From a virus, in the IMG/VR virus record IMGVR_UViG_3300015360_000029, positions 1 to 64,000 of that record: 64,000 bases of DNA; one strand, written 5' to 3'. Positions 19,409 to 45,471 of this stretch are shown piece by piece. Within the stretch, counting starts at the first letter, position 1. Every line of letters begins with the position of its first letter. The notes beneath the pieces are model-generated. The model searched no databases. It was given only the letters and a program-made list of their open reading frames with translations, and had not been told where the DNA came from. The position numbers were made by a program, and so were the translations under genes.

Positions 19409-19903
19409 TCAATCTTGAATCACAAGGTCCTTGCGAACTAGCAGCGTCACTTTATGTCCTTTGAAAGTGCGTTTCGCATTTCCCGTGAAATTGATTATTT
19501 GTGTTTCCATTGGGACAACTCGATGTTCGTCATTGGTGCAATCAACGTACCCAAGCTTCTTCGCTTCGCGCTGAACCAATCTGGCGTACAGCGAGATCCT
19601 CGATGGTTCTGAATCTTTCGCTGTGAACATCATCGATTTTGGATTCTTATCCTTTACTAGCTTTCGCAAAATTGCAAGAATCGTTCCCATGATTCGAACC
19701 CCGATGTTCTTTGATGGATCATCATCATTCGTGACATCCCAAGTGCCTTTGCGCTTGAAATGAATCTTCGTGACGTGAATATATTTTTCGGCGATGAACG
19801 AAACCATCTCTCCTGTTTCATCTTTGAAAGACGCTATCCAATCATCATCATCATCTTCAATTTCGAAGTGATACGCATCATCGAACAATTCTTGAACGAT
19901 CAT
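19409..19903 (-). CDS. Hypothetical protein, putative head-internal (possible GNAT-like / Alt N-terminal-like fold)
   Basis: 164 aa, starts MIVQELFDD; ATGA-coupled to the gp6-like gene; RIMGTI....F.A...SR.SLY.RL pattern. Confidence 0.55.
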   Translation of the reverse strand: MIVQELFDDAYHFEIEDDDDDWIASFKDETGEMVSFIAEKYIHVTKIHFKRKGTWDVTNDDDPSKNIGVRIMGTILAILRKLVKDKNPKSMMFTAKDSEPSRISLYARLVQREAKKLGYVDCTNDEHRVVPMETQIINFTGNAKRTFKGHKVTLLVRKDLVIQD

Positions 19904-22900
19904 TTTGATTGCCTTATGATAGTAGGAGTCAACGCTTCAACTATCAAGATATCACTGAGCTTCGTGGCTGATTGAAGAATTTCATCAATTCCTGCTTCGA
20001 CAGTGAACATCGACCCGAATGAATTCGCGCTGTAGACTGGAACAAGAACGACAGAAGCCACATCAGCTGGCAACCGTTGATGAATCAAACTTAGCAATTC
20101 TGTAGCGTAGAACGTATCGCCGAAGTCCCAACCATCGATGTCGAAGTACGTGTTGATTACATTTAGAATTTCTTCTTTGATTCGTTCGTTCGTAAGTGTA
20201 GCCGATTGGGCGCGAACGACTTTGAATTGAGCACGAAGCTGAGCTTCAGCCAACCCGCCGAACATAAGCCGAAACTTACCAGGATGAAGGATTACTGTAT
20301 CGGAAAGCATTTTGTTTTCGAGCAAGTACCCGTATGAGTTCCGAAGCTCTAGCGGAGTCGGTGCCGATGGTGCCGAGTTCGATGTGCCGCGGACATAACT
20401 GATCACGTTGTCGTAATACCCACGAGTCATCACGTACGCATCGTGAATGTTTGTAACAGATGGATCAATGATGTTCGTGAACGGTGAAAAATGTTGCCAC
20501 ATGAAATCAAGCCCAGCATCGCCTGAACCAATCTTTGGCATCCGAAGGTTCCTGCCGAATGTACCTGTGCTATCGACAGTTGATCCAGCCGCCCAAGTTC
20601 CACCTGGGTTATCTATGAGAACTGTTGTTCCGATTAAGAAGTACTCGTACGAATTAGCTGCGAATGTTTCGAATTGGAGTAAACGGTCTGGAATCAAATC
20701 CCCAGAAGAATCTTCTTGGAGAAGATCTGTTGGGACAACTTCAAGCTGGTGGTAATCAATGACGCCGTTATCATCCCCGATAGACCCAACGACATCATAA
20801 ATCTGTGAAGCCCCAAGAACATCCCCGTCGGAATCAAGGTTCGATCGAAGAACTTTCACGTTATCGAATACACGCTTCTTTGTCTCGTTGTCAAGAAGCT
20901 GATCGACGCTATTGAACCAGAAATTCGTTGTTGGGGATTCAATAGCGATTCGCAAGTCACGTGAATGAACTTCGTATCCGATAACTGCTCCGCCAACAGA
21001 TTGTCGAATCTTGCGAACAAACACTATCCACGAATCTTCTTTTGTAGAAAGATCTGGGAACAGCGAAGATGCCGAAGCTGTGCTCGTCGTAAAGATTTGT
21101 GGATCACGCATCCCGCCCGCGTAATTCGGCATCATTTGGGTATCCATGATTTCCCACCAGCCGTTTAAATTCGCAGCTCTTGTTCCAAAAAGTGAGCGTT
21201 GCTGAAGTATTCCTGTCGCGCTCGTGTCAAGTACGAATGCATCACCGGCAGCGAAAGCGGTTGTATTGTTTTGAATTACTGTGAACATCGCGGCGCTGGA
21301 GCTGAAACCTGCTGGCTGGATGTTATACTGGTTCCCGATGGAGCCCGTTGGGAACGAACCGCGCATATTAGATCGTACAGCAAGGCTCTGCCCATCAGCC
21401 TGAACTTCGATGGTCCATACTTCACCAAAGATCCAGTACGCGCCTCCAACCCAACCAGTTGATGCCAACGAATTTGAAAGACTTACTGTCCCGCTGCCGA
21501 TACCGCGTAGCAATCGATTGTATCGCAGCCCGAAGTAATTCTGCTCCGCAACAGGCTGCAAGCCTGAACCAATGTCGCCTGGCGGGAATTTATTTACCCC
21601 GTCAATTGATCGCGGTAAAGTCGCATCGTAAATCCTACTGTCATCCTCTGGGAACAAGCTTGGATCATGAATCACCCCAAGAAGCGTGTTCGATGAATTA
21701 AGGATACGAGATAGCGGTTCACCGTACCAGTGCCGATCTATCAAACCCTGCATCGATGTCTTTTCTTTCAAAGATCCGTCATTGAACCCGGCAACGTACA
21801 TTCCATTCTTGTCGCGATATCGATCACCTCGGTTGTCTTCGATGAATTTCCTTCGAGGCGATGATACAATGCCTGCAGTACTAGGATCACTAGCTGAGAT
21901 GTGTAACATCATGTTCACAATGCCTGAAGTCTTAAGCAACGGTTCAATGATCTCGTCGATTAAACTTTTGCCAGATACAGATGTCGTTTGTGTTTTCAGC
22001 GAGATCTGATACTTCATCGTCAAATCGTCGCCAAAAAGTTTCACGTTTTCATACGTGCCGGAAGCGTCATTCCAGTCAATGTACTTCGGCTGACCGGCGA
22101 ATGTACGATTGATCGTCTTCAATCGAAGGATTGTTGGATCTTTCAACAAGTACGTATTGTAATCCTGCCCGTTCACCATTCTGTTCTGAGCGTAATACGT
22201 TGATGGTGCCGAGCGTCGGATATGCTCAATTGATTCTGTAGCTGAACCGTTCTGCATCGTCGATGTCAGATTGAATGACATCGTACACGTTTCAGTATTC
22301 CCGATCGATGATGTGTACTGGAATGTCATCGGTTGATTCTGAATCTTGTTCTTTTGAATCACAAGACTTCTGTTTGCAGATTGTCGCATCCAGAATCTAA
22401 ACACCCCTTGCGGCGCATCTGCGAAATCGCCGTCTCCGAACAAAACGGCAATTTGATCATTCTCACGCGAATCAACTTCGAACTTCTTTCGAGTTGATCG
22501 ATTGCTGTTGAACACGAGATTTTGCTCTGCTACAGTGTCGACTTGAGTCCAGCGCTCAGAAATCGCGCCGAGACTGTTGATCTTCTGGACCCAAACGTCT
22601 GTGTGATTCACGTTCGTCGGTGCAAAATCAAGGCGTCGATTTGGCAATTGTTCTGTGATGTCGTAGTCAATTCGAGTTAAAACACCTTGCTTCATGAACA
22701 GCAAGAATCCTGTGTAATCTGATCCGTCGCCGATTCCATCATTCGCGTAAATCAGACTCATCGATGAATTCGGATCTGGTTCACGTTCGAAAGGTCCGTT
22801 CTCATCAACGTCAGCTGGAACGACTTCCATCGGAAATGATTCGAGTCCTGTGTTCACGCTGAATGGTGAAACTCCGTTTGGAAAGGTATTTTGATTGTTG

Positions 22901-44854: not shown

Positions 44855-45471
44855 TACGAAGCCACCGGATCGGTGAACACAAGTTGAGCTCGACCTTTGT
44901 CATCTCGCATCATGACGTTCTTATCGTGCAGATCGACGCCATTCAGATTCGCAAAGTACTTCGCAACAACTCGAACATCGTCATCAGTTGTTTTGCTAGC
45001 GATGCGGCCCCAGTGCTCATCGAGCTCTTGGAAATCGGTGTAATCAATCATGTCATCGAACAGCGGATCGTCTTGTCCGCCTTGATCGAAGTACTTCGGT
45101 GGGACCGTTTTGAGAACACGTTGCACAGCAGCTTTGATTTCTTTCTTAGTGGCTGGCCGAAGCTTTTGAAAGAAGATGATGTGCGCACTCACCGTCCCGC
45201 CATCTCTTAGGAACTTATCATCAACATCGACCTTATGAATGCTGACGATCTTTGGCAGCCATTCGTTGTTCGGGTTCTTCTCACAGAACTTTGCGAACTG
45301 CATGTACTCTGGATCGTATTCAACAACCTTGACTGCGACGTTGTGGTACACTGGATGTTGGAACACCGACGCGTACACACCAGTGCCGAGCTTCTTGATG
45401 TTCAGCGATTTCACAAGCTTATCGGTGTATTGATCAAGCGTCTCTTCTTGAATGAGTTCAAATACTTTCAT
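44854..45471 (-). CDS. Protein-kinase-like enzyme
   Basis: Gly loop LGTGVYASVF, VAVK, catalytic DLHDKNVM, FTDP; starts MKVFELIQEE. Confidence 0.75.
   Translation of the reverse strand: MKVFELIQEETLDQYTDKLVKSLNIKKLGTGVYASVFQHPVYHNVAVKVVEYDPEYMQFAKFCEKNPNNEWLPKIVSIHKVDVDDKFLRDGGTVSAHIIFFQKLRPATKKEIKAAVQRVLKTVPPKYFDQGGQDDPLFDDMIDYTDFQELDEHWGRIASKTTDDDVRVVAKYFANLNGVDLHDKNVMMRDDKGRAQLVFTDPVAS

Follow-up and report, generated by a model that had tools for sequence, protein, structure and literature searches.

The DNA analyzed here, positions 1 to 64,000 of the IMG/VR virus record IMGVR_UViG_3300015360_000029 (hereafter, the window), opens a viral contig of 87,459 bases, of which it covers the first 64 kb, and carries, interleaved with T4-type structural genes, seven open reading frames (ORFs) that begin with one of two kinds of short peptide resembling the N-termini of packaged T4 proteins. 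An original prediction, made from the letters of the window, proposed that this phage uses a T4-like capsid-targeting sequence (CTS) as a plug-in tag to package a diverse set of enzymes, with the gaps between structural genes serving as exchangeable slots. In this work we analyze the occurrence of these N-terminal leaders on the contig, in the protein families that carry them and in related phages, and we weigh the capsid-targeting reading against the alternatives that the same evidence allows.

Leader-bearing genes of the window

The contig represents part of the genome of an uncultured jumbo phage with a T4-type core, which sequence similarity places in the RsoM2USA/XacN1 lineage. In tblastn, its capsid protein matched best to Ralstonia phage RsoM2USA (52.6%), followed by Xanthomonas phage XacN1 (50.0%), Xoo-sp13 (49.0%) and the PA5oct group (~39%). 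At the nucleotide level, a 10-kb part of the window had zero megablast matches in the phage collection. The T4-type structural genes of the window comprise gp25, a gp6-like wedge, a gp5-like hub, gp15 and the sheath, accompanied by a portal, a Peptidase_S77 protease and the major capsid protein. Among the neighbors named in the original prediction, the labels of gp25, the gp6-like wedge, gp15 and the sheath hold, whereas the genes it called gp13 and gp14 are identified in PHROGs only as 'head-tail adaptor' and 'virion structural protein'. The leader-bearing ORFs and the structural genes relevant to them are collected in Table 1.

Table 1. Leader-bearing ORFs and selected structural genes of the window, with lengths in amino acids (aa) and overlaps in nucleotides (nt)
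Feature	Position	Strand	Leader	Context or basis of assignment
73-aa ORF	23479..23700	-	Type 1, MISFKQFIAE	Between gp25 and gp6-like wedge; start overlaps gp25 stop by 4 nt
189-aa ORF	37580..38149	-	Type 1, MHTFKQFLAE	Downstream of sheath gene; ortholog of tagged RsoM2USA_385
Amidoligase_2-family protein, 495 aa	40134..41621	-	Type 1, MITFKNFLAE	Between gp15 and sheath gene
27-aa ORF	42559..42642	-	Type 1, MTTFKQFIAE	4-nt ATGA-type overlap at both ends
111-aa ORF	42639..42974	-	Type 2, MKLFELYQE	phrog_17560; ortholog in locus L192 starts MRLTELYQE
Protein-kinase-like protein, 205 aa	44854..45471	-	Type 2, MKVFELIQEE	PHROG match and conserved columns
164-aa ORF	19409..19903	-	Type 2-like, MIVQELFDD	Downstream of gp6-like gene; DUF6934-like
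gp6-like baseplate wedge, 1183 aa (backbone)	19900..23451	-		phrog_10646, 864.7 bits
gp25 baseplate wedge (backbone)	23697..24137	-		Pfam
Tail sheath, gp18-like (backbone)	38202..40040	-		Profile and PHROG matches
gp15 tail sheath stabilizer (backbone)	41618..42562	-		126.2 bits
Virion structural protein, 627 aa, gp14 position (backbone)	42971..44854	-		PHROGs label
Head-tail adaptor-like protein, 628 aa, gp13 position (backbone)	45778..47664	-		PHROGs label
Major capsid protein	53196..54500	-		tblastn placement; [LIM]-x-E site count
Scaffold-like protein, 298 aa	54527..55423	-		Position and site density
Prohead protease, T4 gp21-type (Peptidase_S77)	56502..57110	-		96.7 bits, cut-off 27

The type-1 leaders were located with a strict pattern, M.{1,2}F[KQ][QNE]F[IL].E, run on the six-frame translation of the window. 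Each of its four matches is an ORF start on the minus strand (23700, 38149, 41621 and 42642), and the corresponding DNA pattern matches four times in the real sequence, whereas 100 shuffles that preserve dinucleotides average 0.00 matches, which confirms that four unrelated ORFs open with a near-identical decapeptide. The three looser, Glu-containing starts also pointed out at the outset (42974, 45471 and 19903) are likewise borne out and represent a second type of leader, M-K-[LV]-x-[DE]-L-[FI]-x-E, found repeatedly in relatives. The rest of the contig adds three strict tags, at 72189 (379 aa), at 75982 (253 aa) and, after five extra residues, at 76733 (295 aa), and the resulting seven tags, four within the window and three outside, fit M-x-[ST]-F-K-[QN]-[FY]-[IL]-x-E. 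F4 and F/Y7 are present in all seven; six of them end in [IL]-x-E and the remaining one in L-E-D.

Beyond the leader, the carriers are mutually dissimilar: BLASTP among the tagged proteins of the contig, with the first 12 residues removed, gave zero mutual matches. The codons of the tags vary synonymously and the DNA upstream of them is without similarity, so that selection acts on the peptide. Chance and nucleotide-level repeats, considered as causes of the shared starts, are rejected on the basis of the shuffles, the codon variation and the unrelated upstream DNA. The expectation that tagged genes are mostly coupled to their neighbors through ATGA overlaps holds for five of the seven tagged window ORFs, which overlap the upstream gene by 4 nt, and fails for those starting at 38149 and 45471, which follow gaps of 52 nt and 306 nt, respectively.

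The identity of the cargo, as far as it can be read from sequence, is only partly supported: of the enzyme set that had been proposed, the amidoligase and the kinase-like protein find support, and the remainder goes unnamed. Against Amidoligase_2 (PF12224) the 495-aa protein itself scores 19 bits, under the gathering cut-off of 22; most of the 120 listed homologs (of 203), however, have a precomputed PF12224 match, and a related representative reaches E = 3.4e-10. The 205-aa protein matches phrog_15752 'protein kinase' at 3e-14 and presents the hallmarks of a kinase-like fold, namely a Gly-rich loop, the beta3 Lys (VAVK), a catalytic D-x-H-x-x-N and a metal-binding Asp; in 34 sequences, G29, G31, K48, D180, H182, N185 and D201 are invariant or nearly so, and its weak matches to PDB profiles (E about 0.05) are protein kinases in 60 of the 60 shown. 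For the proposed ParB/Srx-like domains there is a weak lead only, confined to the 189-aa protein, for which an Atlas feature search placed a ParB_N cluster at rank 9 (score 0.92, 144 shared features). This protein has a conserved core motif, GHEGRGR, and no Pfam match even at E = 5, and its family profile found nothing among PDB sequences at E = 10. The GNAT/Alt-like domain of the original prediction did not materialize, since none of the seven tagged window ORFs matches a GNAT, Alt-like, acetyltransferase or ADP-ribosyltransferase family.

Among the smaller ORFs, the 73-aa product has zero Pfam or PHROG matches, and the 27-aa ORF, searched against all fetched loci, returned leader matches only and no relatives beyond the leader; it either encodes a mini-protein or is what remains of a cargo gene that was lost. 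Pfam annotation of 31 representatives of tagged families identified only Amidoligase_2 and Zeta_toxin/AAA_33, in one member each.

A second leader-bearing cluster lies outside the window, at contig positions 71333-77620 (L160:7333-13620), flanked by a gp4-like head-closure gene on one side and the terminase genes on the other. Its members include a protein with DUF5824 at its C-terminus, a 725-aa ORF in which [LIVM]-x-E occurs 18 times and a 130-aa ORF (contig 71800-72192) with a weak GNAT match, the sole one of this type (Acetyltransf_1, 21.9 bits; cut-off 20.7). Two paralogous ORFs of ~135 to 140 aa, one in the window (636-1043, minus strand) and one beyond it (contig 64803-65225, plus strand), share the start MS[SA]FE[TD]FVQ[LT]ELPKRP, which is leader-like but has its Glu displaced by one residue. 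The baseplate block of the window also includes a cytidylyltransferase-like gene (29336-30034, minus strand; Pfam CTP_transf_like, 29.8 bits).

The leader as a separable module and its T4 counterpart

The homologs of the 495-aa protein, which number 203 and of which the 120 listed were selected by core homology and not by leader, allow the boundary between leader and cargo to be located. A conserved core start, xxM[NS], anchors 97 of these 120 sequences, and in 91 of the 97 the core is immediately preceded by a leader of 8-28 residues with [LIVM]-x-E as its final motif. Leaders of exactly 10 residues occur in 59 of the 120, and among these F4 is found in 57, F/Y7 in 57, L/I8 in 57 and E10 in 58, with positions 6 and 9 variable. 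The other families reveal exchange and loss of the leader: the kinase-like family (68 proteins) bears mostly type 2, with type 1 in four members and at least seven that begin at the core without any leader, and in the family of the 189-aa protein (51 proteins) type 2 replaces type 1 in three members, while three others retain the leader with an extra domain of ~90 residues inserted behind it. The two leader types are thus interchangeable, being exchanged or missing within single families. Taken together, the coincidence of leader end and core boundary, the ending in a gp21 motif and the swap or loss of leaders within families make a detachable, cleavable leader the best reading of these N-termini.

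The T4 system offers a detailed map against which the leaders can be compared. In the T4 record both ipII and ipIII begin MKTYQEFIAE, the peptide given as the CTS in PMC8442874, and the CTS of IPII and IPIII is treated in several sources (PMC8442874, PMC9026906, PMC3012670). It is reported that the first 10 residues of IPIII suffice for packaging, that targeting depends on residues 4 and 7 of the CTS and processing on residues 8 and 10, and that gp21 cleaves after L/I-x-E (PMC9026906). The likeness to this sequence on which the original prediction was built stands, in that the type-1 leader of the window keeps F4, F/Y7, I/L8 and E10, the phage encodes an S77 protease and the carriers are mutually unrelated. 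As in IPII and IPIII, the leader is a 10-residue N-terminal segment placed on unrelated proteins, with Met1, Thr3, an aromatic residue at position 4, Phe7, Ile/Leu8 and Glu10, and it ends in L/I-x-E, the motif of the gp21-type protease, an enzyme that the present phage encodes as well. The two differ at positions 2, 5 and 6 (I-x-x-K-Q here, K-x-x-Q-E in T4), and the cargo of the present phage is larger than the T4 internal proteins, mostly non-basic and inclusive of enzymes. Moreover, its tagged genes lie inside neck and tail operons with stop-start overlaps, whereas T4 ipII and ipIII adjoin denV and gene e.

Two further systems bear comparison. T4 Alt, an ADP-ribosyltransferase that is packaged and loses its N-terminal propeptide to gp21, begins MELITELFDE in the T4 record and shares with the present case both an enzyme cargo and a leader of the M-x-L-x-x-E-L-F-D-E kind; the likeness concerns the leader only, with no ADP-ribosyltransferase or Alt homolog found among the window cargo. 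In phiKZ-like phages and SPN3US, many head-internal proteins are reported to be processed after Glu by a diverged gp21-like protease, with propeptides thought to target the prohead (PMC5694885, PMC9026906). Processing of head proteins after Glu by a gp21-like protease would be the common feature, but the propeptides of those ejection proteins are mostly longer than 100 residues, follow an S/A-x-E motif and have no common decapeptide, whereas the leader considered here is short and T4-like.

Slots in relatives and wider distribution

A search with gp15 fetched 33 related IMG/VR loci, which were analyzed counting identical proteins once and skipping loci with fewer than two backbone genes. These relatives keep the order of gp13-like gene, 627-aa protein gene, gp15 and sheath, and the intervening gaps hold zero to seven variable ORFs. 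Of 80 same-strand ORFs located between backbone genes, 54 carry a leader (37 of type 1 and 17 of type 2 as defined by our patterns). A leader is absent from all 95 backbone ORFs, and outside the block 24 of 293 ORFs have one. Several of the 26 slot ORFs scored as untagged either have near-type-2 starts or owe that score to a misassigned start codon, the tag being located a few residues into the called protein. The 78 tagged proteins of the relatives fall into 33 similarity clusters, 23 of which are singletons, and 47 of the 78 tagged ORFs start with a 4-nt overlap, versus 43 of 254 untagged ones. Among 15 loci inspected closely, 11 have the amidoligase beside gp15 and four have either other tagged ORFs or none at this place. 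The conserved backbone order with variable tagged contents bears out the view of structural-gene gaps as exchangeable slots, an idea that these sequence comparisons leave well supported.

In the slot between the gp13-like and 627-aa genes, relatives also repeatedly have an ORF that lacks a tag, is ~250-340 aa long and has a start like R-A-D-R-R-K-Y-H-V-[LI]-I-K (L162:1009-2034, L163:5150-6175, L167:6807-7556 and L170:1703-2452, with further copies at L171:2915-3664, L177:3765-4511 and L183:7349-8125). This ORF may be a mobile endonuclease sharing the slots.

The position of the slots would also fit another destination for the tagged proteins, with the leader sending them to the neck, tail or baseplate, or serving as a handle for an assembly chaperone, and not loading them into the head. 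The tagged genes of the window do occupy the gp25/gp6 and gp15/gp18 junctions and the neck region, translationally coupled to the genes there, and none is found within the head-gene block at 53-59 kb. Such a role is nonetheless unlikely in our estimation, given that the leader matches T4 head-targeting at the mapped positions and ends in the motif of a prohead protease, that the second tag cluster of the contig adjoins head-closure and terminase genes, and that RsoM2USA has tagged genes adjoining the capsid gene (ORF385) as well as elsewhere.

It may also be asked whether the shared start acts as nucleic acid, be it as a translation-initiation enhancer or as a homology block for cassette recombination, with the peptide itself lacking a role. 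The recurrence of TTC AAA CAA TTC among the leader codons, the strong enrichment of stop-start overlaps in tagged ORFs and the variation of slot contents between relatives, which requires recombination, could all be accommodated in this way. However, most positions show different synonymous codons and the DNA upstream is unconserved; phages as unlike in composition as T4 and the cyanophages retain the peptide; the highly expressed backbone genes (0/95) do without the leader; and the ending of variable-length leaders in [LIVM]-x-E at the core boundary (91/97) is a property of the protein. We consider a purely nucleic-acid function very improbable.

The leader extends well beyond the immediate relatives of the contig. 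RsoM2USA has about nine N-terminal tag instances among 486 ORFs, and one of these, RsoM2USA_89 (66030-66791; 253 aa, 28.56 kDa), starts MKTFKQFLSE and corresponds to ORF89 (28.57 kDa) of the publication on this phage, which is reported among ten abundant virion bands identified by sodium dodecyl sulfate-polyacrylamide gel electrophoresis and liquid chromatography-tandem mass spectrometry (PMC8504454). In XacN1 the strict DNA pattern has zero matches, and a looser protein pattern detects one tagged ORF, ORF117 (MKTSFRQFLAE; AP018399 53927-54754), with a second copy near 373537 attributable to the long terminal repeats. Across IMG/VR, the strict DNA pattern gives at least 132 matches in at least 119 loci, and in 106 among the matches listed an in-frame stop is located within 15 codons upstream, as expected of ORF starts. 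A tagged family of 106 aa occurs in 135 cyanophage records and is annotated as 'virion protein' in one of them. The five longest tag-bearing IMG/VR contigs contain 1, 4, 4, 12 and 12 tags, on a single strand within each record and with 0 control matches, and four of the five encode a Peptidase_S77. A literature search yielded work on the T4 CTS and on giant-phage propeptides but no paper on this decapeptide in XacN1/RsoM2USA-like phages or cyanophages, motifs appearing solely in figures or supplements being beyond such a search.

A different terminal motif is apparent in RsoM2USA, where seven ORFs share a C-terminal F-[ED]-F-Q-[EDN]-[WYL]-L-I-[DE] located 11 to 20 residues before the stop (near 8578, 155249, 176010, 177254, 183243, 213375 and 338460; L002-L019). 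These ORFs may represent a paralogous family or carry a C-terminal tag.

Proposed function and implications

In our judgment, the shared N-termini are probably detachable leaders of the T4 CTS kind that load variable cargo into the head, and this capsid-targeting reading is well supported by the comparisons presented above. The plug-in tag of the original prediction is consequently retained as regards tag likeness, protease, unrelated carriers and slots, and its list of enzymes only in part.

Several observations weigh against this reading. The packaging and cleavage of cargo in this phage are predictions from its sequence. One leader outside the window has Asp, and not Glu, at the cut position, and in T4 an Asp at position 10 is reported to permit targeting and block processing (PMC9026906). 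Five of the seven tagged window ORFs encode proteins with an isoelectric point of 4.5 to 6.4, while the T4 internal proteins are basic. Tagged proteins account for one of the ten RsoM2USA virion bands, and with ~9 tagged ORFs in 486 we calculate that at least one would be included by luck in ~17% of cases; the mass quoted for ORF89 is the one predicted for the full-length protein and is hence uninformative on cleavage. The main text of the XacN1 paper does not mention ORF117. The co-occurrence of S77 proteases and tags in four of five contigs is only suggestive. Lastly, T4 gp61.1, a 54-aa hypothetical protein that is not a known head protein, begins MKTFKEFIKE. Its gene (NC_000866 18966-19130; L196) lies between primase gene 61 and gene 61.2, in a region that is not late.

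This T4 gene, which has a comparable start and lies in an early or middle region, can be taken to favor a tag for intracellular sorting, stability or partner binding unrelated to the virion, such as one targeting proteins to a host or phage complex, and so can the fact that most of the cargo has no assigned function. Opposed to it are the arrangement of tags in blocks co-oriented with and coupled to late structural genes, the reported presence of RsoM2USA ORF89 in virions (PMC8504454) and the co-occurrence of tags with S77 proteases, and we regard an intracellular tag of this sort as quite improbable.

Under the capsid-targeting reading, we infer a sequence of docking, cleavage, retention in the head and ejection. 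Late in infection, a tagged protein would be made together with the product of the upstream structural gene, mostly by means of the 4-nt stop-start overlaps. The aromatic residues 4 and 7 of the leader would then dock the cargo on the prohead scaffolding core, for which the presumed docking partner, on the basis of position and site density, is the 298-aa scaffold-like protein with its 20 [LIVM]-x-E sites. Once the prohead shell had closed around the core, the S77 prohead protease, the presumed leader-removing enzyme, would cleave after residue 10, the Glu of [IL]-x-E. The cargo thus matured would stay in the head and most likely exit with the DNA at the next infection. In the major capsid protein, four [LIM]-x-E sites lie within the first 39 residues and one within the other 395, a distribution that fits the expectation for a cleaved propeptide. 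Type 1 (M-I-T-F-K-Q-F-L-x-E) resembles the T4 IPII/IPIII leader and type 2 (M-K-L-x-D/E-L-F-E) the start of T4 Alt, and the junctions between conserved neck, tail and baseplate genes would provide slots for the gain, loss and exchange of tagged genes.

A bolder proposal, which we advance tentatively and view as possible but doubtful, is that the neck, sheath and baseplate junctions of this jumbo-phage clade serve specifically for the hot-swapping of injected effectors. The ATGA overlap and the leader codons would together constitute a universal adaptor, with cassettes traded slot by slot between relatives in integron-like fashion, and the amidoligase and the kinase-like protein would be delivered pre-made, modifying host proteins or metabolites within seconds. 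Such an adaptor would confer late, coupled expression and a ticket to the capsid on any captured gene.

If the capsid-targeting reading is correct, the head-loading tag of T4 would not be a peculiarity of T-even phages but an old, portable label kept nearly unchanged in distant jumbo phages and cyanophages, and sequence alone would reveal which proteins uncultured phages inject. Enzymes, here the amidoligase and the kinase-like protein, would in this case be indicated as pre-made tools for host takeover or counter-defence, and a ready tag for capsid loading would become available in phages used against plant pathogens, such as those of Ralstonia and Xanthomonas. The slot architecture, for its part, would offer a simple route to fast-evolving cargo genes.

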